DNA of 64,000 nucleotides from Escherichia coli (GTDB taxonomy: Bacteria; Pseudomonadota; Gammaproteobacteria; Enterobacterales; Enterobacteriaceae): the NCBI RefSeq assembly GCF_044324785.1, contig NZ_CP172127.1; one strand, 5' to 3'. Shown here piece after piece: positions 19,622 to 53,506 of the stretch. The notes under the pieces are model-generated. The model ran no database searches, had not been told where the DNA came from, and saw nothing but the letters and a program-made list of their open reading frames with translations. Each line of letters opens with the position of its first letter. Positions within the stretch are counted from its first letter, which is position 1. A program made the translations under genes and the position numbers.

Positions 19622-22462
19622 ATGAAGCCGCTCTCTTCACCATTACAGCAGTACTGGCAGACCGTTGTTGAGCGGCTGCCAGAGCCTTTAGCCGAGGAAT
19701 CACTTAGCATACAGGCGAAGTCAGTACTTACTTTCAGTGATTTTGTGCAGGACAGCGTGATTGCGCATCCAGAGTGGCTGACGGAACTGGAAAGCCAACC
19801 GCCGCAGGCCGACGAATGGCAGCATTACGCTGCCTGGTTGCAGGAGGCGCTCAGTAATGTGAGTGACGAAGCCGGGTTAATGCGCGAGCTGCGGCTATTC
19901 CGGCGGCGCATTATGGTGCGCATCGCCTGGGCGCAAACGCTGGCACTGGTTACTGAAGAGAGCATTTTGCAGCAGCTCAGTCATCTGGCGGAGACGCTGA
20001 TTGTTGCGGCGCGTGACTGGCTGTATGACGCCTGCTGCCGCGAGTGGGGAACGCCGTGCAATGCGCAGGGCGAAGCGCAACCGCTGCTGATTTTAGGCAT
20101 GGGTAAGCTGGGTGGCGGGGAATTGAATTTCTCCTCAGATATCGATCTGATTTTTGCCTGGCCGGAACATGGTTGTACCCAGGGCGGACGCCGGGAACTG
20201 GATAACGCCCAGTTTTTTACCCGCATGGGGCAGCGGCTGATTAAAGTGCTGGATCAACCAACGCAGGATGGCTTCGTCTATCGCGTGGATATGCGACTGC
20301 GTCCGTTTGGCGAAAGTGGCCCGCTGGTGCTGAGCTTTGCGGCGCTGGAAGATTATTACCAGGAGCAGGGGCGCGACTGGGAGCGTTACGCGATGGTCAA
20401 GGCGCGGATTATGGGCGATAGCGAAGGCGTCTATGCTAACGAGTTGCGTGCGATGCTGCGCCCGTTTGTTTTCCGTCGTTACATCGATTTCAGCGTGATT
20501 CAGTCGCTGCGCAACATGAAAGGAATGATTGCCCGTGAAGTGCGTCGACGCGGTTTGACCGACAACATCAAACTTGGCGCAGGCGGCATTCGCGAAATTG
20601 AATTTATCGTCCAGGTGTTCCAGCTCATTCGCGGCGGGCGTGAACCGTCGCTGCAATCGCGCTCTTTACTGCCAACGCTCAGCGCCATTTCCGCGCTGCA
20701 TCTGCTTTCTGAAAACGATGCTGAACTATTGCGAGTGGCGTATCTGTTCCTGCGGCGTCTGGAAAACCTGCTGCAAAGCATTAACGACGAACAAACCCAG
20801 ACGCTTCCTTCTGATGAGCTTAACCGTGCGCGGCTGGCGTGGGCGATGGACTTTGCTGACTGGCCGCAACTGACCGGGGCGCTGACCGTACATATGACCA
20901 ATGTGCGTCGGGTGTTTAATGAATTGATTGGCGACGATGAAAGTGAAACTCAGGAAGAGTCGCTGTCGGAACAGTGGCGTGAGCTGTGGCAGGATGCGTT
21001 GCAGGAAGATGACACCACGCCAGTGCTTGCGCATCTTAGCGAGGATGATCGCAAACAGGTGCTAACGCTGATTGCTGATTTTCGCAAAGAGCTGGATAAG
21101 CGTACCATCGGGCCGCGCGGGCGTCAGGTGCTCGACCATCTGATGCCGCATCTGCTAAGTGATGTCTGTGCGCGTGAAGACGCTGCTGTCACGCTGTCGC
21201 GCATTACCGCCTTGCTGGTGGGAATTGTTACCCGCACTACCTATTTAGAATTGCTCAGTGAATTCCCCGCGGCGCTTAAGCATTTGATTTCTCTGTGTGC
21301 CGCATCGCCGATGATTGCCAGCCAGCTAGCGCGTTATCCATTATTGCTGGACGAACTGCTCGATCCAAACACTCTCTACCAACCGACGGCGACGGATGCC
21401 TACCGTGATGAACTGCGCCAGTATTTGCTGCGCGTGCCGGAAGATGACGAAGAACAACAGCTTGAGGCGCTGCGTCAGTTCAAACAGGCGCAACTGTTAC
21501 GTATTGCGGCAGCGGATATCGCCGGTACGCTACCGGTAATGAAAGTGAGCGATCACTTAACCTGGCTGGCGGAGGCTATGATAGATGCCGTCGTTCAGCA
21601 GGCGTGGGTTCAAATGGTTGCCCGCTACGGTAAGCCAAATCACCTGAACGAACGCGAAGGGCGTGGTTTTGCGGTGGTCGGCTACGGCAAGCTGGGCGGC
21701 TGGGAGTTAGGCTACAGTTCCGATCTTGACCTGATCTTCCTCCATGATTGCCCGATGGATGCGATGACTGACGGCGAGCGGGAAATCGACGGGCGACAGT
21801 TTTATCTGCGTCTGGCGCAACGCATTATGCATCTGTTCAGTACGCGAACCTCTTCCGGCATTTTGTATGAAGTGGATGCACGGTTGCGTCCGTCCGGGGC
21901 GGCGGGAATGCTGGTGACATCCGCAGAAGCGTTTGCCGATTATCAGAAAAACGAGGCCTGGACGTGGGAACATCAGGCGCTGGTGCGTGCGCGTGTAGTG
22001 TACGGCGATCCGCAGCTCACCGCGCACTTTGACGCAGTACGCCGGGAGATTATGACGCTGCCGCGCGAAGGCAAAACCCTGCAAACAGAAGTGCGGGAAA
22101 TGCGCGAGAAAATGCGTGCCCATCTCGGCAATAAACATCGCGATCGCTTTGATATCAAAGCCGATGAAGGCGGAATTACCGATATCGAATTTATTACTCA
22201 ATATCTGGTGTTGCGCTACGCTCATGAAAAACCGAAGTTAACGCGCTGGTCAGACAACGTGCGCATTCTGGAACTACTGGCGCAAAACGACATTATGGAA
22301 GAGCAGGAAGCGATGGCGCTGACCCGTGCTTACACGACGCTGCGCGATGAACTTCATCATCTGGCATTACAGGAATTGCCGGGCCATGTGTCGGAGGATT
22401 GCTTCACCGCAGAGCGTGAACTGGTGCGGGCAAGCTGGCAGAAGTGGCTGGTGGAAGAATGA
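19622..22462 (+). CDS. glnE: Glutamine synthetase adenylyltransferase/deadenylylase
   Basis: 946 aa from ATG 19622 ([19 protein letters not shown]...); the track's 1014-aa version is an in-frame upstream extension overlapping ygiF. Confidence 0.95.
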
Positions 22463-40323: not shown

Positions 40324-42465
40324 TCAAAATTCCATTTTCACCGTGAATTGCACTGCACGCGGATCGCCAATCTGATTCCCCAGATTATTTGTGGCGATGG
40401 AAGAGGTGTAATACGTTTTATCAAACAGGTTTTTGACGTTTAATTGCAGTGTGACCGGATACTGCAATTTCATTTTGTATGCGGCGAAGGCATCGGCAAC
40501 GAAATAGCCAGGCAGATAATAGTCAGCCCCATTGGTTGCCGAACGACGGCTTACGCCATGTCCACCACCGCCAAACGTCAGTGTGTTATTGCCTGGCATG
40601 TTATGAATGTCATAGGTCAGGAATAGCGAACCGGTATGACGAGGAACATTCGGCAATGGTTTCCCTGCATAATCAGGATCTTCCAGAACCTTAGCATCGG
40701 TATAGCCGTAGCTGGCAATGATATTAATGTTTTCAGTTAATGCTCCCGCAAGGTCGACTTCTACCCCTCTTGAACGAACGCGGCCTGCCGTTTTGGCGAT
40801 GGTTTCATCACCAATACTTTCGGTATACAACACGTTACGTTTATGGATATCAAACAGCGCAATATCTGCGGTTATACCATCGAACAGCTCGAATTTTGCC
40901 CCGACTTCGTAAGCATTAGATGATTCCGGTGGAAGATCTCCGATGTAGCTGGCAATTGACGATTGCGGCATAAATGTTTGCGAATAATTAGCAAATAAGG
41001 ATACCGATGGCGTCAGTTTGTAGACTAACCCCAGTTTGGGCGTCCATTGTTCATCGCGGCTGTCAGTATTGACATTAAAAGGACGGCCTTTACCCGCATA
41101 CTGCGTGTAATACTGATAGCGGATCCCGGCGACGGCAATCCAGTTATCGGTCAGATAGAGCGCGTCCTGTGCATACGCTGAGTAGCTCTCCTGTTTGATC
41201 GTCTGATCACTGTCCGACGCCGAAACCGTTGTGCATTTGCTGGTAATACCATAAACGGGGTTGTAGATATTGAAATCTTTAGCTTTTTTACAGCGAATCA
41301 TATCTGTGCGCAGAAGATCATAATATTCATATGACACCCCACCCAGAATCTCATTATAGAATCCGGCAATATCAACATTCCCTTGCAGATCCGCACGAGT
41401 AGCATGCATACGCTGGGTAGATCCTTGGGTTGCATCAACACGCCGTGTCAGCGTTCCTGTCGTTGCATCATATGCGGTAACACGCGCCTGATTATCGCTG
41501 TATTTATCCTGGCTGTAGCTGTAATCAAAGCGCGCTGTCCACTGGCTATTGAGATGATATTCTGCGTTGAGTTGCGCCAGATCGGACTGACCATCTGTAA
41601 TATTAAACGGTTCGTCAAAACGTATTTTTCGATCAACGTTTACGGGCTGTTTCGTCGTAAGGTCGAAAATCGTTCCACGATCGAACGGAGTTTTATAGTC
41701 CCGATGGGAATAGAGCATGGTTACTGTTGCATTATCACCAAACCAGGTGAGTGACGGGGCAATAAATGTACTGCGCTCTTTACCGAAGTTTCGCCAGTAA
41801 TCTTCATCCTGCACTTCCCCGGTAAGGCGATACGCCAGCTGAGTGCCTTCAATGGGACCTGTGATATCAAGTTGCCCAGTGCCGCCACCAAAACTGGAGG
41901 AGGTGGCTGAAACCGAACCATGGAATGTTTTTTCCGGGCGCTTGGTCACGACGTTAATCAGTCCACCAGGATCGAGAATGCCATACAGCGTGGAGGCCGG
42001 ACCTTTTAGCACTTCCACACGTTCTGTGGCGGCGTTGAAACTGCGAGGAAGTACAGTTCGCAGGCCGTTGGTCATGATGGAGCCATCCCGGTTAGCACCA
42101 AACCCACGACGTACAAAGGCGTCCTGAGTTCCGCCTAATGTATTGGTCTGTACCACGTTACTGACGTTATAAAGCGCTTCATCCAGCGTCGTCGCATTCT
42201 GATTTTCCAGAACCTGATCGCTAACCGTATTGACCACCTGCGGGATATCCAGCATCGGCATATCGGTTAATGTCGCCGTGGAAGTGCTCAGAGGTTGATA
42301 ACCATCGGTCGCCTCAGTTGCGGTATTTGCATCCGCTGTAACAGTGATTGTTTCGCCATCTTTGGTCGTTGCAGTGTCGGTTGCATGAATCATTGGTGCT
42401 GCAAAGAGCAGTGAAAAGAGCGCCCGACCTTTGATTCCTGAGAATGAAGGTGTGAACTTAGCCAT
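40324..42465 (-). CDS. TonB-dependent outer-membrane siderophore receptor
   Basis: 713 aa; signal peptide, plug domain, beta-barrel, C-terminal aromatic residue (...FTVKMEF). Confidence 0.88.
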   Translation of the reverse strand: MAKFTPSFSGIKGRALFSLLFAAPMIHATDTATTKDGETITVTADANTATEATDGYQPLSTSTATLTDMPMLDIPQVVNTVSDQVLENQNATTLDEALYNVSNVVQTNTLGGTQDAFVRRGFGANRDGSIMTNGLRTVLPRSFNAATERVEVLKGPASTLYGILDPGGLINVVTKRPEKTFHGSVSATSSSFGGGTGQLDITGPIEGTQLAYRLTGEVQDEDYWRNFGKERSTFIAPSLTWFGDNATVTMLYSHRDYKTPFDRGTIFDLTTKQPVNVDRKIRFDEPFNITDGQSDLAQLNAEYHLNSQWTARFDYSYSQDKYSDNQARVTAYDATTGTLTRRVDATQGSTQRMHATRADLQGNVDIAGFYNEILGGVSYEYYDLLRTDMIRCKKAKDFNIYNPVYGITSKCTTVSASDSDQTIKQESYSAYAQDALYLTDNWIAVAGIRYQYYTQYAGKGRPFNVNTDSRDEQWTPKLGLVYKLTPSVSLFANYSQTFMPQSSIASYIGDLPPESSNAYEVGAKFELFDGITADIALFDIHKRNVLYTESIGDETIAKTAGRVRSRGVEVDLAGALTENINIIASYGYTDAKVLEDPDYAGKPLPNVPRHTGSLFLTYDIHNMPGNNTLTFGGGGHGVSRRSATNGADYYLPGYFVADAFAAYKMKLQYPVTLQLNVKNLFDKTYYTSSIATNNLGNQIGDPRAVQFTVKMEF

Positions 42466-42563
42466 TTAGTCTGTTATCCCAAAAACTCACGGATTGTCGT
42501 GAGTGAAAATTGTTTCTTGTTGCTCACTAAGCACTATCCGTTTGTTATCTCACCATCGGATAT

Positions 42564-42584
42564 GTAATTGAGAATCATTCAATC
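42564..42584. promoter_or_regulatory. Fur-box-like site in the divergent promoter region between the receptor and the ABC operon
   Basis: gtaattgagaatcattcaatc compared with consensus GATAATGATAATCATTATC; embedded in an AT-rich 370-bp intergenic region. Confidence 0.5.
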
Positions 42585-42838
42585 ATGCGGTGATGTAGTA
42601 GTAAATGAGAAATAACAAAAAATTGCTACATGTGTTTTTATGAGAGGTTAATGCAATTCAATTGATTGTAATTTATTAATATTTAATGGTTTTATTTTTA
42701 TCTTTAAAAATATTTCACCTGTTATTTACCTTGTTTTTGTATGGCTTTTAACTTCTTGACTACTACATTTTGTGGCGTCAAACTCTCAAAGGAGAATGAG
42801 TTTTATTTTTGTTTGTCTTTGATTAAGTTGGCGTACAC

Positions 42839-43648
42839 GTGGCACATAACGCAAAAGGGCAGGGGCTGATCCTCGACAATGTTTCTGCCGGGTATCACAC
42901 GAAAATCATTGTTGATGGTGTTTCTTTCTCCGTTCCCACAGAAAAAATGACCGTTCTGGTTGGGGCAAACGGCTGTGGAAAGTCGACGTTGCTCAGCACC
43001 ATTGCACGTATCTTGCAACCTATGGGCGGCTCGATATTGCTGGATGGTAAAGCGATTCACGAGCAACCAACGAAAGCGTTATCCCGTAGACTTGGGATCT
43101 TGCCGCAGTCGCCATTATTGCCGGAGGGATTAACCGTTTATGAACTGGTGTCGCGTGGGCGTTTTCCCTGGCAGAATTTCATTCGTCAATGGAGCGACGC
43201 CGACGAGCAGGCGGTAGAAGAGGCCCTGAAATTAACCGGTACGCAGGAGTTTGCACATTTACCTGTTGAAAAACTTTCTGGTGGGCAGCGCCAGCGTTGC
43301 TGGATTGCGATGGTGTTGGCGCAAAAGACGCCTTATATCCTGCTGGATGAACCCACAACCTGGCTTGATTTACGTTATCAGGTTGAAATTCTTGAGTTAT
43401 TACATGATTTAACGCGTCATCACGGGCGTACAGTCGTCGTGGTGTTGCATGATCTGAATTTTGCCGTCAATTATGGTGATACGTTGATATTTTTACGCCA
43501 GGGGAAAGTGGTGCGTGTGTTGAATGAGGGGGAACATTGCACGCCTGAGCTGGTAAAAGCTGTCTTTGACGTTGATGTTCACGCATCAATAAATCCTCTG
43601 ACGGGAAAGCCGTTCTTCATGCCGTTTCGTGGTGTAGAAAAAGTATGA
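42839..43648 (+). CDS. ABC transporter ATP-binding protein, FepC/FecE-like
   Basis: 269 aa; Walker A GANGCGKST, signature LSGGQRQR, Walker B ILLDEPT; GTG start at 42839 is the most upstream in-frame start. Confidence 0.88.
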   Translation: MAHNAKGQGLILDNVSAGYHTKIIVDGVSFSVPTEKMTVLVGANGCGKSTLLSTIARILQPMGGSILLDGKAIHEQPTKALSRRLGILPQSPLLPEGLTVYELVSRGRFPWQNFIRQWSDADEQAVEEALKLTGTQEFAHLPVEKLSGGQRQRCWIAMVLAQKTPYILLDEPTTWLDLRYQVEILELLHDLTRHHGRTVVVVLHDLNFAVNYGDTLIFLRQGKVVRVLNEGEHCTPELVKAVFDVDVHASINPLTGKPFFMPFRGVEKV

Positions 43649-44628
43649 TGCGCACAGGGCTGGTTACTGTAATTTTCCTCGCCTTACTGCTGGTGGGATG
43701 CGTGGTATATCCAGGGATTGGTGCCCGATTTATTGCACCACAAACGGTGTTGCAGGCATTTCTTCATTTTGATCCGCAAAACTTCGATCACAACGTAATT
43801 GTAAGACTCCGTTTGCCGCGTTTAGCGGCAGCATTGCTTACCGGTGCTTCTCTTGGAGTTGCTGGTGCTTTGTTGCAGGCTGTCATTCGTAACCCATTGG
43901 GGGAGCCACATATTTTAGGCTTAAATGCCGGAGCCGCTCTTGCTGTCGTTGCTGCCAGTGCGCTTGGGCTGGCCTTTCCGGTTGGACGCCCACTGCTGGC
44001 ATCTACGGGCGGCGCGTTATTGTTCCTGTTGATATTGCTGCTTTCCTCCGCAGGGCGTTCAGGGTTAACGCCAATGAAAGTTACTTTATGCGGCGTGGCG
44101 CTATCGGCGTTCGTGTCCTCAATAACGGCTGCAATCCTGATTCTTGACGAACAAACACTGCTGGCGATGCGGACATGGCTAGCAGGTGATTTAGCGGGGC
44201 AGGATTGGGCGACGCTGGGTACGTCCGCCTGGTTTTCTCTGGGGGGGGTTGTGTTAGCCATTTACCTTGCGCCCTCTCTTAACATGTTGGCACTGGGTGA
44301 TCGCATGGCGCAGGGGCTGGGCGTCTCGGTACTCCGCACGCGAACATTCACTCTGCTTGCGATCGCGTTGCTCTGTGGCGCAGCCGTATCGATTGCTGGC
44401 CCCATTGGTTTTGTCGGTCTGCTAGTACCGCAGATTGTCAGGCGTCTGGTATCTGCGGATCTGCGCGTTCTGCTCCCTCTTTCAGCTTGTGTCGGTGCCT
44501 TACTGCTATTACTGGCAGATATTATTGCCCGGACGCTTTTCACGCCCCATGAGCTGGCGACCGGTGTCATGACGGCGTTAGTTGGTGCGCCCGTTTTTGT
44601 CATTATGGCGACGAGGATGTTCAAATGA
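43645..44628 (+). CDS. ABC transporter permease (FecCD family)
   Basis: 327 aa polytopic membrane protein; start overlaps the upstream stop. Confidence 0.85.
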   Translation: MMRTGLVTVIFLALLLVGCVVYPGIGARFIAPQTVLQAFLHFDPQNFDHNVIVRLRLPRLAAALLTGASLGVAGALLQAVIRNPLGEPHILGLNAGAALAVVAASALGLAFPVGRPLLASTGGALLFLLILLLSSAGRSGLTPMKVTLCGVALSAFVSSITAAILILDEQTLLAMRTWLAGDLAGQDWATLGTSAWFSLGGVVLAIYLAPSLNMLALGDRMAQGLGVSVLRTRTFTLLAIALLCGAAVSIAGPIGFVGLLVPQIVRRLVSADLRVLLPLSACVGALLLLLADIIARTLFTPHELATGVMTALVGAPVFVIMATRMFK

Positions 44629-45674
44629 GTCGGATAATGAACGTCGGGCTACGTCCACTACGTGTTGGTAAGTTTTCGACACTGGTACGCCCTAAAAATC
44701 TGGTGTTGCTTGGTGGGCTGTTTCTGTTTGCGGTTGGAATACTGATATTCGGTCTGATGCATGGTTCTTTTTCTGTCCCGGCATCGGAAGTAGGACGAGC
44801 GTTGTTTGCTCCAGAAAACGTAAGCACAGACGCACGTTATATTGTGCAGGATATTCGCTTGCCGAGAGTCATCATGGCATTGCTATGCGGAGCCATGTTA
44901 GGTATGGCGGGGGCCGCGATGCAATCCATTGCGCGTAACGGCCTTGCCGATCCTGGTTTAATCGGCGTCAAAGAAGGATGTAGCGTGGCGGTGCTGTGGC
45001 TGATTTTCCAGTTTCCAATGCTGGGAATGTTCTGGCGTCCAGTGGCTGGTCTTGCTGGTGGCTTGTTGGTGGCTTTAATCGTGATTTTTTGTGCGCGCGA
45101 TATTTCCCGCCCGCGATTTGTTCTGATTGGTATTGGTGTTTCCTGGTTTTTCGCCGCCGGTATCGGTGTATTTATGACCACTGCAGATGTTCGAGATGTA
45201 CAAACTGCATTGATGTGGTTATCGGGAAGCCTGCATGCAGCTAACTGGATGTTAGTCGGTATTTCAGCCTGTTGGATGTTGCCAGCCGCTCTTTTATTGC
45301 TGTTCACCGCCAGGACGGCGGATATCGCTCTGCTTGGTCATCAGGTGGCAACCGGGTTAGGCGTGAATAGTTCTCGCCTGGCGTTGTTACGTGTCGCCGC
45401 ACCCATAATCCTGACAGCCGTCTGCGTTTCGTGTGTTGGTAACATCGGTTTTGTCGGATTGATAGCACCCCATATATCACGTTTTATTCTACGTGGCGGG
45501 CAGACGACATTACTGCTGGGGAGCGCGGTATCGGGGGCGTTGTTAGTCATCCTGGCGGATAGCATTGGTCGTTTGGCTTTTTTGCCTTTGCAACTGCCTG
45601 CCGGAATCATTATTTCATTGATTGGTGGACCATTCTTTTTGCTACTGCTCTGGCAGCGCAGGAACAGTTTTTAA
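44625..45674 (+). CDS. ABC transporter permease (FecCD family), second subunit
   Basis: 349 aa polytopic membrane protein; start overlaps the upstream stop. Confidence 0.85.
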   Translation: MSRIMNVGLRPLRVGKFSTLVRPKNLVLLGGLFLFAVGILIFGLMHGSFSVPASEVGRALFAPENVSTDARYIVQDIRLPRVIMALLCGAMLGMAGAAMQSIARNGLADPGLIGVKEGCSVAVLWLIFQFPMLGMFWRPVAGLAGGLLVALIVIFCARDISRPRFVLIGIGVSWFFAAGIGVFMTTADVRDVQTALMWLSGSLHAANWMLVGISACWMLPAALLLLFTARTADIALLGHQVATGLGVNSSRLALLRVAAPIILTAVCVSCVGNIGFVGLIAPHISRFILRGGQTTLLLGSAVSGALLVILADSIGRLAFLPLQLPAGIIISLIGGPFFLLLLWQRRNSF

Positions 45675-45684
45675 TGGGAGTTAT

Positions 45685-46632
45685 ATGCGTTTATTTTTTT
45701 CTCTGCTGATACTGTTGTCATTCTTTGCCCGCGCGACAGAACCTGTTCAGGTCTTTACTGATGATTTAGGGCGCAAAGTCACTGTTCCTGCTCATCCAAA
45801 GAGAATTGTCTCTTTACACGATCTTGATATCACTATTCCTCTGATTGAGCTCGGTGTACCTCCTGTCGCCAGCCACGGGCGAACCCGGCCTGACGGTAGC
45901 CATTTCATTCGATCAGGCGCGTTATTGACAGGTGTCGACTTTGATAATTCATCGATCGCTTTTATTGGCACCGCTGATATTGATATTGAAGCGATTGTGG
46001 CGGCAAAGCCTGACCTGATCATCACAGAACCGACCCGTAATACGCCCATTGAACAACTGGAAAAAATTGCGCCCACGGTGAGCATTGATCATCTCAAAGG
46101 CGGCGCGCCAGAAATCTACCGCAAGCTGGCAGAACTTACAGGAACGCAGTCGCAGCTGGCGATACTTGAACGCCGCTATCAGGCACAAATCAATGCGCTG
46201 AAGGCGACGCTGGACAGCCAAAAAATAACGGTATCGGTGATTCAGGCAAATCAGGGAAAAATTAATGTGATGCATAGCTATCATTCGCTGGGGCGGGTAT
46301 TACGCGATGCTGGTTTTCGCTTTCCGCCGCTGATTGAGAGCATTCCTGAAGGTGGGCGAATGGATGTGAGCGCAGAGCGTTTACCTGAACTGGATGCCGA
46401 TTTTGTTTTTGCAACCTGGCGCGGTGACACCGGTGGTAAACCTCAGGATGAGCTGGCAGCAATGGAAAAAGTCATGCCGGGATGGTGTCAGTTTCTGACG
46501 GCCTGTCGTTCCGGGCGCTATGTGCTGATTTCTCGTGAAGAGGCGATTTCTAACTCCTTTGCATCTCTGGGGCTGATGGCTGCGCAGATACAATCACAAA
46601 TTGCGGGACGACCTCTACCGGAGGCTAAATGA
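45685..46632 (+). CDS. Periplasmic substrate-binding protein (siderophore/chelate-binding cluster)
   Basis: 315 aa from ATG 45685 (MRLFFSLLILLSFFARA signal peptide) preceded by aatgggag RBS; track ORF extends upstream. Confidence 0.8.
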   Translation: MRLFFSLLILLSFFARATEPVQVFTDDLGRKVTVPAHPKRIVSLHDLDITIPLIELGVPPVASHGRTRPDGSHFIRSGALLTGVDFDNSSIAFIGTADIDIEAIVAAKPDLIITEPTRNTPIEQLEKIAPTVSIDHLKGGAPEIYRKLAELTGTQSQLAILERRYQAQINALKATLDSQKITVSVIQANQGKINVMHSYHSLGRVLRDAGFRFPPLIESIPEGGRMDVSAERLPELDADFVFATWRGDTGGKPQDELAAMEKVMPGWCQFLTACRSGRYVLISREEAISNSFASLGLMAAQIQSQIAGRPLPEAK

Positions 46633-47516
46633 TCCAGAAAGACAAAACGCGGGTTGATATTTATGGTGAGCGTTTTCGCACTCGCGCGAGTCAGTTAACG
46701 CCTGGGTTAAGAACTGTCGCAAGCTACATTAATGAGCATCGTGAAGTGGTACTCGAGCAAACGGCGATGGAAATTGCGGCCACGTTGAACACTTCCGATG
46801 CCACAGTTATCAGGGCTATACAGGCTCTGGGGTTTGCCGGGCTGCGTGATCTGAAACGCACTCTGGAACAGTGGCTTGGTCCAGCCCTTAGTTCCAGCGA
46901 AAAGATGTCTACGACGGTGAGTAACTTGACGAGCGATGTTAACACCGCAATCGACTTTGTTCTTGAAGGGCATTTGTATACTTGTAATGTCCTGTCAGAG
47001 CCTGAAAACCGCCACGCGCTTGCGCAAGCTGTAGCGTTGTTGGTGCAGGCACGGCAAGTCGCTATTTTTGGCATTGGCGCTTCGGGTATCCTGGCGGACT
47101 ATACCGCACGACTATTCAACCGCATAGGTTTGCCTGCCACGGCACTAAACCGTACGGGTATTGGCCTTGCCGAGCAACTGATCGCGCTTCAACGTGGCGA
47201 TGTTCTGATCATGATGGCGCAAAAATCTGCGCACCGGGAAGGGCTGACAACGCTTCGTGAGGCGAGGCGGCTGGGGATCCCTGTTATTTTGCTGACAAAC
47301 GCGCTGGATTCACGTTTTAGCAAAGACGCCAGTATCGTGATTCATGTTCCGCGCGGGGATGAAAAGGGGAAAACGCCACTACATGGTACGGTATTGTTGT
47401 GCCTGGAAATGATTGTTTGGTCGGTGGCTTCCGCGATGCCGCAGCGTGCGGTTAAAACCATTAAGCGAATTAACGATTTCCATCGGGGTTTGAAAACGGG
47501 AAGAAAGAATGGCTAA
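46629..47516 (+). CDS. RpiR/MurR-family transcriptional regulator (N-terminal HTH, C-terminal SIS domain)
   Basis: 295 aa; SIS-type nucleotide/sugar-phosphate-binding fold recognisable (…VAIFGIGASG…); start overlaps the SBP stop. Confidence 0.8.
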   Translation: MIQKDKTRVDIYGERFRTRASQLTPGLRTVASYINEHREVVLEQTAMEIAATLNTSDATVIRAIQALGFAGLRDLKRTLEQWLGPALSSSEKMSTTVSNLTSDVNTAIDFVLEGHLYTCNVLSEPENRHALAQAVALLVQARQVAIFGIGASGILADYTARLFNRIGLPATALNRTGIGLAEQLIALQRGDVLIMMAQKSAHREGLTTLREARRLGIPVILLTNALDSRFSKDASIVIHVPRGDEKGKTPLHGTVLLCLEMIVWSVASAMPQRAVKTIKRINDFHRGLKTGRKNG

Positions 47517-47905: not shown

Positions 47906-48487
47906 TTAACCAAAAATTTCCACAAGATGCTTGCGATATTCTTCAGTATAGCGGGGAACATCAGGCATTTTTATCACGTCATTAGCGATAAATGTCGGCA
48001 GCGGTTCCATGCCAAGGAATTGGTTTGCTTTATGGAATGGCAGATACACACCGTCAACGCCAACGCCGTGGAAGAACTGATCTTTTTCGGTGAAGGCTTC
48101 CATTGGTGCGTTCCAGGTCAGAGAAAGCATATATTTTTTGCCCTGTACCAGGCCGCCGGAACCGTATTTTTTCGACGGATCTTTGCGGGTACGACCATCG
48201 CTGGCATACAGAGTCCCGTGACCTTCGGTGAATACATCATCAATGTATTTTTTCACTGTCCACGGCGCGCCCATCCACCAGCCTGGCATCTGCCAGATCA
48301 CCACATCAGCCCAGAGAAAGTTTTGTACTTCCGCTTTGACATCGTAGTCGCTGTCGGCGCGAACGATGCGAACATCATGCCCGAGGTCGCGCAGTGTGCC
48401 ATCCGCGACTTCGGTCAGGGTGTTGTTCAGTTGACCATTGGAGTGGGCGAATTTTTTCGCGCCGTTGATAATCAGGATGTTGCTCAT
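47906..48487 (-). CDS. mdaB: NADPH:quinone oxidoreductase MdaB
   Basis: 193 aa MSNILIINGAKKFAHSNGQLNNTLTEVADG... Confidence 0.95.
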   Translation of the reverse strand: MSNILIINGAKKFAHSNGQLNNTLTEVADGTLRDLGHDVRIVRADSDYDVKAEVQNFLWADVVIWQMPGWWMGAPWTVKKYIDDVFTEGHGTLYASDGRTRKDPSKKYGSGGLVQGKKYMLSLTWNAPMEAFTEKDQFFHGVGVDGVYLPFHKANQFLGMEPLPTFIANDVIKMPDVPRYTEEYRKHLVEIFG

Positions 48488-48548
48488 TTTTTAACCTCAA
48501 GGTGAGACGTTTGTCGACTATAGTACGTCACAGAGCGGTACGGTGAAA

Positions 48549-48580
48549 TTAGCAAAATGTGCAAAGTCTTTTGCTAATTT
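48549..48580. promoter_or_regulatory. Perfect 10-bp inverted repeat ATTAGCAAAA-N12-TTTTGCTAAT upstream of mdaB and of the Hcp island
   Basis: attagcaaaatgtgcaaagtcttttgctaat, with an extra direct copy ttagcaaaag immediately 3'. Confidence 0.4.
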
Positions 48581-48736
48581 AGCAAAAGTCTGATCTTGCT
48601 CTGATTCACCGATGCGGGATAAATATTTTCTGAAAATGACAATACTGAAATCAACTTCCTATAAGTTCCCACAGGAGAGATGTATTATGTAAATGATAAA
48701 GTAGTTTTTCGGAAAAAATAATCATGGAGAATATAT

Positions 48737-49216
48737 ATGTCAAATATCATATACTTATCAATTAAAGGAAAAACACAAGGTTTGATCTCTGAGGGCTGTG
48801 GTTCGTATGCATCTATTGGTAATAAATATCAAATAAATCATGTGGATGAAATTTTTGTTTTACAGTTCGACCATTCTTTAAGTCGAGAATATAATGTAGT
48901 GCATCATCCCATAAAATTTTACAAGCCAATAGATAAATCCTCTCCTTTATTAAATGCTGCTCTTTCTGAAAATGAAGAGTTATCAGCTGTATTTAATTTT
49001 TATAGAATTAATTCTGGCGGTTGTATTGAAAGGTTTTACACAATTGAATTGCAAGGGGCATATTTATCGAATATTCTGACTTGTTATCCACACTCAATTA
49101 CACATGCGGGTAATCAACCGGAAGAGGTCATTGTTCTTAATTATAAAAATATAACATGGAAGCACCATATCGCGAGTACGGAATCATATAGCTGTTGGGA
49201 AGAAAGGATTTTTTAA
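48737..49216 (+). CDS. hcp: Hcp-family protein (type VI secretion tube protein), orphan copy
   Basis: 159 aa; conserved Hcp blocks: N-terminal Y-x-I-K-G...QGLI-x-GC, FVLQFDH, HHPIKFYKPIDKSSPLLNAAL, VIVLNYKNITWKH; RBS ggag 7 nt upstream; AT-rich context. Confidence 0.85.
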   Translation: MSNIIYLSIKGKTQGLISEGCGSYASIGNKYQINHVDEIFVLQFDHSLSREYNVVHHPIKFYKPIDKSSPLLNAALSENEELSAVFNFYRINSGGCIERFYTIELQGAYLSNILTCYPHSITHAGNQPEEVIVLNYKNITWKHHIASTESYSCWEERIF

Positions 49217-49218
49217 AT

Positions 49219-49926
49219 ATGAAAAGCGATCTCACTATAAAAAATAGATATTGTACAATTCCACAAACGAAGTTCCGTAAATGGGATGAAATGGACGTTT
49301 TACTCTGGAAGTTAGGAAAAAATGATTCGCGTCGCCGTTCAGGAGTATATTATTTAAATGCTTATAAAGATGCATATGTACAATATAATAGGGACAAAAT
49401 AATTAAACATGCATATGCCGCAGGGATTCGTCCAGAGTTATTGGGCGGCGTGGCCTGGATTGAGTCAGGAGGTATGCCTGAAAATTATAAGTTTCAGATA
49501 TATGAAACAAAAAGAATGATCGGATCGTTAGATATGCCTGAAAATAAAACATCATTTGGCTCAATGGGTATACAAATACGAACCGCAGCGATTACTCTAG
49601 GCCTTGACCCTTCAGAATTAACTACCAGAAATCAGTTAGAGTTAGCGACATGCCTGATGGAAGATGATTTTACCTTTAAAATTGCTGCTACTCATTTAAG
49701 AGATCTTGCCCTTTTTGATTATCCCTCTTCGGCAACACTGTATATGACGAATGAGCAGTATATTATGGCTGGTATTAGATATAATCGTGGTGTTGAACGA
49801 GATTTGGGTTTTTTTATTTATTTAATTAATAATTTGCCTGCGCGTGATACAGATGATTATAAATTCATCTCTTATGGTATGAGGTTGTTAGAGATTAGAG
49901 AACATATCAAAAAATTGATTAATTAG
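49219..49926 (+). CDS. Hypothetical protein with lytic-transglycosylase/lysozyme-like motifs; candidate Hcp-associated effector
   Basis: 235 aa from ATG 49219 (RBS ggaagaaagga); motifs WIESGG, SMGIQI and AGIRYNRG with spacing like the ES / GLMQ / AYNxG motifs of family-1 lytic transglycosylases; start 3 nt after the hcp stop. Confidence 0.6.
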   Translation: MKSDLTIKNRYCTIPQTKFRKWDEMDVLLWKLGKNDSRRRSGVYYLNAYKDAYVQYNRDKIIKHAYAAGIRPELLGGVAWIESGGMPENYKFQIYETKRMIGSLDMPENKTSFGSMGIQIRTAAITLGLDPSELTTRNQLELATCLMEDDFTFKIAATHLRDLALFDYPSSATLYMTNEQYIMAGIRYNRGVERDLGFFIYLINNLPARDTDDYKFISYGMRLLEIREHIKKLIN

Positions 49927-49935
49927 TAATCAGAG

Positions 49936-50265
49936 ATGTTAAAAAAACAACTACTATCAATATTTGAAGCACTATTATACATAATGCTTACTTATTGGTT
50001 AATAGATGCTTTTTTTGCTTTCAATAAGTATGACTGGATGCTTGAGTCGGGAGACAATATTTGCAGTATACCTTCCGTTTCAGGCGAAGATCGTATATTG
50101 CAAGCAATGATTGCAGCATTTTTTCTTCTGACGCCACTTATTATTCTTATCTTAAGAAAACTCTTTATGCGGGAAATGTTCGAGTTTTGGCTATATGTAT
50201 TCACGCTCGTTATTTGTTTGGTTTGTGGTTGGTGGCTTTTTTGGGGACGGTTTATATTTTGCTAA
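49936..50265 (+). CDS. Small 3-TM inner-membrane protein; candidate cognate immunity protein (possibly the YgiZ orthologue)
   Basis: 109 aa with three hydrophobic helices; immediately downstream of the putative effector; AT-rich. Confidence 0.55.
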   Translation: MLKKQLLSIFEALLYIMLTYWLIDAFFAFNKYDWMLESGDNICSIPSVSGEDRILQAMIAAFFLLTPLIILILRKLFMREMFEFWLYVFTLVICLVCGWWLFWGRFIFC

Positions 50266-50269
50266 TAGT

Positions 50270-50306
50270 AAAATCTATGAGAGTCGTTTTAACGGCTCTC
50301 ATAGAC
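50270..50306. terminator. 10-bp-stem hairpin closing the Hcp island, convergent with qseC
   Basis: tctatgagagtcgttttaacggctctcataga. Confidence 0.5.
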
Positions 50307-50313
50307 AGAGAAG

Positions 50314-51663
50314 TTACCAGCTCACCTTCGCCTCAAATCCACCTTGTTCCGCATTCCCAAACTCAACATTCATGCCATGCAATTTGGCGATTCGCTGGAC
50401 AATCGATAGCCCAAGTCCACTGCCGGTAGCGGTTTGTCCGGGTGGGCGATAGAAGCGTTCGCCAATTCTCGCCAGTGCCTCTGGTGTCACACCGGGGCCG
50501 TTATCCCTCACGATGAAATTATCGGCATTCAGCGTGACGTCTACCACGCTGCCCTGTGGACTGTAACGCACGGCGTTATCCAGAAGGTTTCGTACCAACA
50601 AACTTAGCAACAGCGGTTGTCCGGTGCGTTTGATGCCGTGGGCATTGAGTGTCAGTCGCACGTCAATTTTCGCCTGCTGCGCCGTGTGGTAAATATCCAT
50701 CACCGACGATTGCAGGAGATCTTCAAGCGGGATCTCCGCGACGTCCTGAAGGTTATCCAGTGAGTCCAGCCGCGATAGCGTGAGCAGTTGATCAACCAGA
50801 CGAGTAGCACGATCGATTCCGGAATGTAATTGAAGCAGCGCTTTTTTCCGCGCCTGCGGATCATCGTCAGAGAGCTGCGCAACTTCGGTTTGCACTTTCA
50901 GCGCCGTTAACGGGCTACGAAGTTCGTGAGCTGCGTCGGAGGTAAAGCGTCGTTCACGAACCATCATCGCATGTGTGCGGGCGAACAGTTGATTCAACGA
51001 CTCAACCAGTGGACGCACTTCGCTGGGTACGCCCGTCGCGTTTAGTGGTTTTTCCGAGTCAGGGTCACGCATACGTAGTGCCAGCGCCAGTTTGTTCAGC
51101 GGCGTGAGTTCACGACCCAGTAGTACCATCATGATGATTAACATAATCGGCAGTGCGACCAGCCACGGGATCAATTGTCCGGCAACAATCGCCAGCGCCA
51201 TGTCTTCACGGTATTCCCATTCCTGACCAACAACGATGCGATATTTGCCATCAGGTGAGGTCATCCAGACAAAACGCCAGGGATCGTCTTCACCGACCAG
51301 TTGCCCGTCAGCAAAACCTTCCCGCTGATAGCTATAGGGAATATCTTCTCCGTTATCGCCATCGTTAAGGACCATTCTGCCGTCGTGGGTAAAGATGGCA
51401 AAGGTCAGCGCATCGTCATCAACATGACCGTGTTTTAATTTATTTGGCGTCTGTGCCATGCGATCCGCCGCGTTGATTTCGTTGAGATCGAGCGTACTTA
51501 ACCGTTTGGCAAACAGCATCAGTTGGGTGTCGAACAACTCATCGACGTTATCCGTTGTTTGTTTCCAGGCGACAAAGCTGGAAAGCAGCCAGGTCACTGA
51601 GGCCAGAATTAAAAAGATTAGCGTCAGCCTGACTCGCAGACTAAGACGTTGGGTAAATTTCAT
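50314..51663 (-). CDS. qseC: Quorum-sensing/adrenergic sensor histidine kinase QseC
   Basis: 449 aa; two TM segments, HisKA and HATPase_c domains. Confidence 0.95.
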
Positions 51664-53398: not shown

Positions 53399-53506
53399 TG
53401 GAGAATCTTTACCGGAGTGTGAGCCACATCACTCGCGATAAGTTTGAGCGAACAATGCCACAGGCGTATTGTTGTCGGGCTTATAATTTCTCCGGTAAGG
53501 AATACC

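Follow-up and report, generated by a model that had tools for sequence, protein, structure and literature searches.

A 64,000-nucleotide stretch of Escherichia coli DNA (contig NZ_CP172127.1; hereafter, the window) carries, between mdaB and qseC, an AT-rich block of three genes: an orphan hcp, an open reading frame that we call ORF2, and the small membrane-protein gene ygiZ. Taking sequence and structure models together, we think it probable that these genes form a horizontally acquired operon for bacterial competition, relying on a type VI secretion system (T6SS) whose genes lie elsewhere. ORF2 is a putative peptidoglycan glycosidase or lytic-transglycosylase-like effector carried by Hcp, and YgiZ is its putative cognate immunity protein. 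A first-pass annotation of this DNA had read the succession of an Hcp, a cargo protein and a small membrane protein as an effector-immunity cassette. That interpretation is supported, by computation alone, through the conserved linkage of the three genes, the fusions of the ORF2 domain to other delivery modules, and its predicted fold. Hcp-linked T6SS cell-wall toxins are a well-known class, to which the pair would add an uncharacterised effector-immunity family; a full-text search of open-access papers and bioRxiv returned no description of the locus or of the toxin family.

The first gene encodes, by family hidden Markov model (HMM), a full-length Hcp (TssD), the tube protein of the T6SS. 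Its product matches TIGR03344 with 199.1 bits against a cutoff of 58.9 (E 4.5e-59; residues 1-157 on profile positions 1-167) and PF05638 at 9.3e-20, confirming the earlier assignment to the Hcp family, and the nearest solved chains in the PDB are Hcp proteins (~1e-21). Main-cluster proteins for comparison came from NZ_CP148331.1, a proxy genome with 99.9% identity to the window across the locus and with matching gene coordinates. Aligned without gaps over its full 159 residues, the orphan Hcp shows 50% identity to the 159-residue Hcp that ends the T6SS-2 cluster of this genome; identity is 28% to the 172-residue Hcp adjoining vgrG in the same cluster, and 32% to the T6SS-1 Hcp of strain CFT073. 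By sequence, the orphan Hcp shares its subtype with the Hcp of the T6SS-2 cluster. Two published genes were considered as possible counterparts and rejected: hcp2B of avian pathogenic E. coli lies at a different locus, adjoining vgrG2 (PMC5874247), and hcp3 of the porcine extraintestinal pathogenic strain PCN033 is 1149 bp long (PMC4882540). All three genes of the cassette are under purifying selection: the ratio of nonsynonymous to synonymous substitution rates (dN/dS) within E. coli is 0.10-0.29; between the window and CFT073 it is 0.10 for hcp and 0.15 for ORF2.

ORF2 encodes a protein of 235 residues (27.4 kDa, isoelectric point 8.9) that has no Pfam match even at E<=10 and no NCBIfam or PADLOC match, and Pfam matches are likewise absent among 22 close homologues. 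At 2e-29 it matches phrog_11932, whose function is not known. An AlphaFold model built on the 22-homologue alignment (mean predicted local distance difference test score, pLDDT, 76, with a core above 90; predicted template modelling score 0.76) has a lysozyme-like alpha-helical fold, and every one of its best structural matches is an enzyme that degrades polymeric peptidoglycan. As modelled, then, ORF2 has the lytic-transglycosylase/lysozyme fold. It is because of this match in fold, and not of weak sequence matches alone, that we regard ORF2 as homologous to the lytic transglycosylases.

Sequence searches of the PDB with ORF2, both single-sequence and profile, gave sub-threshold matches only, one of them the profile match to 3t36_A (residues 47-73 on profile 65-91, E 1.5). 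In the profile search and in a direct hhalign comparison, the ORF2 motif AWIESGGMP aligns with AIESGGNP of MltE. The glutamate of this motif is invariant in the alignments of 22 close and 77 distant relatives, sits at the end of the motif-I helix, as does the catalytic glutamate of these enzymes, and lands on Glu64 of MltE, whose exchange gives the inactive E64Q form of structure 4hjy. We therefore predict that it is the catalytic residue, Glu82 counted from Met1 (E83 in the 236-residue translation used for alignments). Other conserved motifs of the family are T-S-x-G-x(4)-Q, R-Y-N-R-G and S-Y-G; of these, S-x-G-x(4)-Q and Y-N-R-G resemble the GLMQ and AYNxG motifs of family-1 lytic transglycosylases.

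ORF2 has, judged from its sequence, no signal peptide: its maximum N-terminal hydropathy is 0.07, and neither a hydrophobic N-terminal segment nor a lipobox is present. The first-pass annotation had seen no obvious housekeeping identity in this gene. ORF2 is indeed no housekeeping gene; its product is a signal-less protein of lysozyme-like fold whose domain is fused elsewhere to delivery modules. Two metagenomic sequences depart from the usual form. One (P0005) carries a signal-peptide-like, unrelated N-terminus on a 97%-identical ORF2 body and is possibly an assembly chimera; the other (P0002), a single occurrence, reads in frame from Hcp residues 1-99 into ORF2 at about residue 12 and most likely arose by deletion.

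The third gene had been noted as coding for a small membrane protein with three transmembrane segments. The three helices stand, and the gene can be named: it is ygiZ of K-12, named in RefSeq as a DUF2645 family protein, and its product matches PF10840 at 1e-10 (residues 13-109 on positions 5-98 of the 98-position model). Hydropathy and an AlphaFold2 model (pLDDT 88.7) agree on three hydrophobic helices (2-27, 50-77 and 81-107), with a 22-residue loop between the first two and a short turn between the last two, so that YgiZ is predicted to be a three-helix inner-membrane protein. Lys and Arg residues lie at the N-terminus and in the turn (RKLFMRE), and the loop (28-49) is acidic, with an isoelectric point of 4.1. 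By the positive-inside rule, we infer that the loop and the C-terminus face the periplasm. Across 17 DUF2645 proteins, with identities down to 18%, nothing is invariant except Cys43, which lies in the loop, and the C-terminal Cys109; these two probably form a periplasmic disulfide. Papers that mention ygiZ treat its product as an inner-membrane protein of unknown function.

The distribution of these genes was examined in 5426 complete E. coli genomes, where the mdaB-qseC interval is polymorphic with three states. The hcp and ORF2 genes occur in 1261 genomes (ORF2 thus in 23%), always with ygiZ, as in CFT073; ygiZ is alone in about 3336, including K-12 and REL606; and in about 829, such as O157:H7, nothing lies between mdaB and qseC. 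Relative to K-12, only hcp and ORF2 are extra in the window. The cassette genes are intact (>=80% coverage) in 1260 of the 1261 carriers, no hcp-ORF2 genome lacks ygiZ (0/1261), and ygiZ in total is found in 4597 genomes (85%). An accessory gene of this frequency is not half of a housekeeping pair conserved in all E. coli, the finding that the first-pass annotation had named as fatal to its proposal. Because the effector never occurs without ygiZ and ygiZ is very often alone, the distribution is that expected of an effector-immunity locus with orphan immunity genes, a known pattern (PMC9796082; PMC6730261).

A second E. coli locus repeats this pattern. In 45 of the 5426 genomes, the yjeM-mscM interval holds a 237-residue paralogue of ORF2 (34% identical) followed by a DUF2645 gene of the YjeO family, and most other strains have yjeN-yjeO alone at this position. 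That few genomes have the toxin and most have the DUF2645 gene here too independently supports the immunity reading. The toxin gene of strain ECOD1 at this site is interrupted by the insertion sequence IS1. We considered whether yjeN is a remnant of the paralogous toxin and rejected this, as there is no similarity.

Beyond E. coli, the order hcp-ORF2-DUF2645, with gaps of at most 15 nt or overlaps, holds in all close-family loci examined, which span eight genera counting E. coli; hcp lies directly upstream of ORF2 in every one, chromosomal and plasmid. The cassette sits within an integrase/transposase island in Chania, between pagP and an EamA gene in Pectobacterium, and, in Serratia, on conjugative plasmids as well as on the chromosome. 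Further loci come from Pseudocitrobacter (two), Buttiauxella (two), Pectobacterium zantedeschiae (one), Citrobacter werkmanii (one) and Serratia sp. H1w, a single genome with two diverged copies (L021, L023), each with its own Hcp and DUF2645. These eight species-representative loci stem from a contig scan with narrow peptide patterns, which is uninformative on distant relatives. The flanking genes differ in each genus, and we therefore regard the cassette as mobile.

Counting Hcp-linked and other carriers together, DUF2645 comes directly after the toxin domain in 12 of 12 further distinct contexts with a readable full downstream gene. It does so also when the carrier is not Hcp. A PAAR-toxin fusion (P0041; PF05488 at 6e-17) with no hcp nearby (L026) is followed by a DUF2645 gene of 100 codons with overlapping stop and start, and DUF2645 is next in both of two stand-alone toxin relatives. 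Since DUF2645 persists when the carrier changes, the toxin domain and DUF2645 behave in a manner typical of a toxin with its cognate immunity gene. After more distant relatives (for example L014) unrelated genes follow, not DUF2645. In another contig (L013 9-2877), a 43%-identical ORF2 homologue comes after the C-terminal part of a ClpB/ClpV-like ATPase gene and two small membrane open reading frames, and a DUF2645-like gene, which has the loop cysteine motif too, begins behind it; this suggests that the pair can also sit inside a main T6SS cluster. In the Chania multitudinisentens island, a gene with a Pesticin domain and, after it, one for an LprI (lysozyme-inhibitor-like) protein lie 3 kb downstream of the cassette (L002 12287-13314); they are a candidate second pair of wall-degrading toxin and inhibitor.

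The ORF2 domain reaches well beyond this cassette. When 1.84 billion representative proteins were searched with its profile, 420 clusters, counted at 50% identity, passed E<=1e-3, and 339 passed E<=1e-10. An N-terminal extension of at least 60 residues precedes the domain in 79 of 184 sequences, 77 of which were scanned with Pfam. These 77 contain eCIS_core (11), OmpA-like (5), PG_binding_1 (3-5) and PAAR (3-4) domains, one each of DUF4280, WXG100 and Phage_Mu_F, and SLT in one at E<=1e-3 and nine at E<=0.1. Several relatives start with Rhs-core ends, as judged by eye, and some also carry endolysin modules; relatives in AFDB bear the names SLT-domain, PAAR, RHS repeat-associated and eCIS-core. 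Because of the fusions to PAAR, Rhs, extracellular contractile injection system (eCIS) and WXG100 delivery modules, the ORF2 domain is, as far as its sequence relatives tell, a widely reused toxin module of polymorphic-toxin systems. The fusions to peptidoglycan-binding domains (OmpA-like and PG_binding_1) point to the cell wall as its substrate. ORF2 thus has the marks of a T6SS cargo effector, namely conserved linkage to hcp, no Sec or Tat signal, and a domain fused elsewhere to the spike components PAAR and DUF4280; ygiZ has those of an immunity gene, lying directly downstream and being co-inherited with the toxin domain whatever the delivery module.

If the cassette is a weapon, its delivery would depend on a T6SS encoded elsewhere. 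The first-pass annotation had found no other T6SS core genes in the window, and none is annotated in the 64 kb of the collinear NZ_CP148331.1. The search of the rest of the genome that it had proposed was carried out in this near-identical genome. There the metV site is empty, and a complete T6SS-2 lies at aspV, with tssA-C, tssE-H, tssJ, tssK, tssM and an IcmH/DotU (TssL-type) gene, together with tagH, vasI, a VasL-domain gene, two hcp, two vgrG and a PAAR gene. Across the E. coli genomes, co-occurrence was derived at megablast sensitivity from concatenated queries that give the union of genomes. The T6SS-2 tssC was found in 552 genomes (union with the cassette 1538), 275 of which have both, where 128 would be expected if the two were independent; for the T6SS-1 tssC the corresponding figures are 1393 genomes, union 1761, both 893 and expected 324. 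The cassette is thus 2-3 fold enriched in T6SS-positive genomes, and 71-93% of carriers have at least one of the two tssC types.

We propose that the dedicated Hcp hexamer would bind ORF2 in its lumen and stabilise it, and that the loaded Hcp would stack as part of the tube that the resident T6SS shoots into an adjacent Gram-negative cell. Once in the recipient periplasm, ORF2 would cleave the glycan backbone of peptidoglycan, with Glu82 as the single acid catalyst, and the weakened wall would lead to lysis or growth arrest. Sister cells would be protected by YgiZ, whose acidic 22-residue loop and C-terminal tail may bind and block incoming ORF2, and strains that lost or never had hcp-ORF2 would keep ygiZ as orphan immunity against carriers. 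The operon is probably silenced by H-NS and turned on by envelope or host signals. We suggest silencing because the sequence is AT-rich, because the K-12 ygiZ promoter is activated by BglJ-RcsB, which counteracts H-NS at bgl and leuO (PMC3950696), and because the T6SS-2 hcp2B operon is repressed by H-NS (PMC5874247).

Several observations weigh against this proposal. On the side of the enzyme, ORF2 fails sequence-level membership of the SLT family (PF01464; glycoside hydrolase family 23, GH23), its assignment coming from the modelled fold; the model is of low confidence at residues 1-18 and 87-114; and the hhalign match to MltE spans 25 columns at 23% probability. At 27 kDa, ORF2 is also large for the Hcp lumen, and a polytopic membrane immunity protein is, to our knowledge, unusual for a wall-degrading T6SS effector, the Tgi and Tai proteins that we know of being soluble periplasmic proteins or lipoproteins. 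On the side of delivery, the complete T6SS was seen only in the near-identical proxy and not in the window's source genome, and the co-occurrence enrichment is real but confounded by phylogeny. T6SS-2 tssC is present in only 22% of carriers, while 71% have T6SS-1, to whose Hcp the orphan Hcp is distant, and neither tssC type was found in 7-29% of carriers (93 to 368) at megablast sensitivity. CFT073, a well-known cassette carrier, has a T6SS-1 cluster at metV in which tssF is annotated as a frameshifted pseudogene (L033 34165-35923), and it may be without a working T6SS.

The points about tssC, the distant T6SS-1 Hcp and CFT073 are what would be seen if the module were genuine by descent and undelivered in many carriers, for lack of a compatible or active T6SS, with only the protection by ygiZ mattering today; that ygiZ alone is the commonest state fits as well. 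We hold this to be unlikely. Against it stand the low dN/dS of hcp and ORF2, the intact genes in nearly every carrier, the enrichment in T6SS-positive genomes and the complete T6SS-2 of the near-identical genome.

In function, the cassette comes nearest to the Tge-Tgi pairs and to Hcp-linked cargo islands. Tse3 of Pseudomonas aeruginosa (the Tse3-Tsi3, or Tge1-Tgi1, pair), a peptidoglycan muramidase, is a signal-less SLT/lysozyme-like enzyme that is delivered by a T6SS and acts in the recipient periplasm, as proposed here for ORF2, and its gene likewise adjoins the immunity gene (PMC3792639). It differs from ORF2 in that the two have no detectable sequence similarity (Tse3 is absent among the PDB-sequence matches), in its length (a 409-residue chain in 4luq, against 235 residues), and in that Tsi3 is a soluble periplasmic protein whereas YgiZ is a three-helix membrane protein; unlike Tse3, ORF2 also has its own dedicated Hcp gene. 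Lacking both the sequence similarity and the soluble periplasmic immunity protein that mark Tge1-3/Tgi1-3, ORF2 and YgiZ fall outside these families. With the family-1 lytic transglycosylases (MltE/EmtA, Slt70 and MltC; PF01464, GH23), ORF2 has the catalytic-glutamate motif of MltE in common. It differs from them in having no SLT HMM score and no signal peptide or lipobox, in carrying an extra conserved N-terminal segment (FRKWDExD..W) and the insertion 87-114, neither with a counterpart in MltE, and in being a mobile accessory gene rather than a housekeeping autolysin.

The membrane location of YgiZ could be explained if ORF2 were delivered in the same way but acted at the membrane surface, on lipid-linked or nascent glycan or by binding a membrane component, and not on mature sacculi. 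A polytopic immunity candidate with only about 30 residues predicted in the periplasm would suit such a target, as would the N-terminal segment and insertion that MltE lacks. Yet the best structural matches all degrade polymeric peptidoglycan, and the OmpA-like and PG_binding_1 domains to which relatives are fused bind mature wall. For these reasons, we judge a membrane-surface target quite unlikely and prefer a wall-degrading ORF2.

It might also be argued that YgiZ serves some separate purpose, as a membrane or envelope-stress protein, and only happens to be encoded beside the toxin gene in E. coli. It has its own BglJ-RcsB-activated promoter in K-12 (PMC3950696), its overexpression raises sabinene tolerance in BL21(DE3) (PMC7181518), and it is found, mostly without the toxin, in the large majority of E. 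coli. Against this, DUF2645 directly follows Hcp-linked, PAAR-fused and stand-alone toxins in unrelated contexts, the same arrangement recurs at yjeM-mscM, and hcp-ORF2 never occurs without ygiZ; orphan immunity genes are, moreover, known elsewhere (PMC9796082; PMC6730261). We consider an independent role of this kind improbable, and YgiZ as an immunity protein the better account.

Comparison with other toxin systems places the cassette among Hcp-linked effectors. In the hcp island of Pantoea, hcp is likewise followed by an effector gene and then an immunity gene, and orphan immunity genes are likewise kept after effector loss or replacement (PMC9796082). A preprint (bioRxiv 2024.03.05.583533, citing Ma et al. 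2017) describes orphan hcp loci outside the main cluster and delivery of Hcp-ET1 by T6SS-2. The E. coli Hcp-ET1 is a fusion toxin, whereas Hcp and toxin are separate proteins here, and the toxin and immunity families of both the Pantoea island and Hcp-ET differ from ORF2 and YgiZ. As in the polymorphic toxin systems (PAAR, Rhs, eCIS and WXG/LXG), the ORF2 domain occurs as a C-terminal module behind PAAR, Rhs-core ends, eCIS_core and WXG100, with DUF2645 downstream of the PAAR-fused form; the ORF2 of the window differs in being a stand-alone cargo with a dedicated Hcp and no fusion.

We give almost no credence to a phage-type lysis pair of endolysin and three-helix holin, or to an enzyme that remodels the wall for the cell's own secretion machine, ORF2 in neither case being an exported toxin: the match to phrog_11932, the succession of a signal-less lysozyme-like protein and a small three-helix membrane protein, and the relatives fused to endolysin modules and Phage_Mu_F are what such a pair would have, but phage genes are absent around the cassette in all contexts examined, T7-driven overexpression of ygiZ is tolerated and beneficial, unlike that of a holin (PMC7181518), the constant partner is hcp while other relatives carry PAAR, Rhs or eCIS trafficking domains, and ORF2 has no way into the periplasm of its own cell, as a remodelling enzyme would require. 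A close phage origin of ORF2 was dropped as well, as no predicted viral structure in BFVD matched significantly (best E 0.18).

The layout of the locus is given in the table below. The interval 48488-50313 is exactly the space between the first base of mdaB and the last base of qseC, neither included, and holds three tightly spaced plus-strand genes. Its GC content is 0.30-0.39 inside the block against about 0.50-0.55 on either side (300-nt windows), or 33.9% for 48592-50314 against 51.4% for the whole window, in line with the AT-rich block amid DNA of about 50% GC described earlier. That description had bounded the block by the mdaB start and the qseC stop; this is right for the interval, whereas the AT-rich insert begins at about 48592, the bases before it being core sequence. 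Sequence comparison with O157:H7, which is without the whole block, places the junction at about 48591/50315. Strains with ygiZ only share 48592-48648 with the window, and K-12 and PI7 diverge past 48648. Beyond this point K-12 has an unrelated segment of about 150 bp, which contains the promoter of its ygiZ; K-12 and the window also differ in the opening 25 nt of that gene. Tblastn found no remnant of hcp or ORF2 in the K-12-specific segment, and either state of the interval may be the older, with insertion or replacement as the event between them. A promoter scan of the block found sites no more frequent than in shuffled sequence, and no promoter was assigned; a terminator consensus scan found no terminator-like site in the spacer after ygiZ, with results not above shuffled sequence.

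Table. Features of the mdaB-qseC interval, with two related loci outside the window; positions are those of the window unless a locus record (L) is given.
Feature	Position	Strand	Remarks
mdaB	47906-48487	minus	left neighbour of the interval
Core region upstream of mdaB	48488-48591		outside the insert; identical in K-12, strain PI7 and O157:H7
Left arm of the AT-rich insert	48592-48736	plus	leader and presumed promoter region of the hcp operon
ORF1, hcp (tssD)	48737-49216	plus	159 aa
ORF2	49219-49926	plus	235 aa; ATG 2 nt past the hcp TAA
Codon of predicted catalytic Glu82, ORF2	49462-49464	plus	aligned to MltE Glu64
ORF3, ygiZ (DUF2645)	49936-50265	plus	109 aa; 9 nt past the ORF2 TAG
Codon of Cys43, ygiZ	50062-50064	plus	invariant, in loop
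Codon of Cys109, ygiZ	50260-50262	plus	invariant, C-terminal
Spacer, ygiZ stop to qseC stop	50266-50313		48 nt; right end of the insert
qseC	50314-51663	minus	right neighbour, convergent with ygiZ
yjeM-mscM locus	L028 8001-9028; L031 4002-5806; L030 1202-1827		outside the window
Serratia plasmid cassette	L010-L012 5507-7058		beside TraI, TraX and RepA (RepA leader)

Other features of the window were noted in passing. Nested perfect palindromes, AAATTAGCAAAA / TTTTGCTAATTT and AGTCTTTTGCTAA / TTAGCAAAAGTCT, lie at 48546-48591 and are conserved in K-12 and O157:H7; they look like a candidate dimeric-regulator site for mdaB. Between parE and ygiN (40324-47516) the window carries genes for a TonB-dependent receptor, a Fec-like ABC transporter and a MurR/RpiR regulator, a block that is presumably absent from the K-12 map. 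Only about 109 nt separate ygiV and ygiS (53399-53506), and the mqsRA toxin-antitoxin pair, which lies at this position in K-12, is absent from the window. By the annotation of the collinear genome, two Ibs-family type I toxin genes lie between hldE and yqiK (21468-21903).

A bolder version of these ideas, which we think rather unlikely, is that DUF2645 proteins (YgiZ and YjeO) are membrane immunity proteins against an undescribed superfamily of lysozyme-like toxins on T6SS (Hcp and PAAR), Rhs, eCIS and type VII carriers, and that their location reflects that of the toxin's action, on nascent or lipid-linked glycan at the membrane surface and not on the mature sacculus. If true, this would add action at the membrane surface, as a new one, to the modes of T6SS cell-wall effectors, and ygiZ and yjeO, long-unassigned genes of K-12, would be orphan antidotes kept by most E. 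coli. The antidotes to wall-degrading enzymes that we know of are soluble; one embedded in the membrane would be a departure from them.

The ORF2 domain would be a new toxin family, so far with no Pfam model, that is reused by several secretion and injection systems. The three natural states of the locus, weapon and shield, shield only, and neither, would be convenient for studies of strain competition in the gut and urinary tract. If confirmed, the reading preferred here would give ygiZ, and by extension yjeO, a function: protection against a wall toxin that about one in four E. coli carry, uropathogenic lineages such as that of CFT073 among them.

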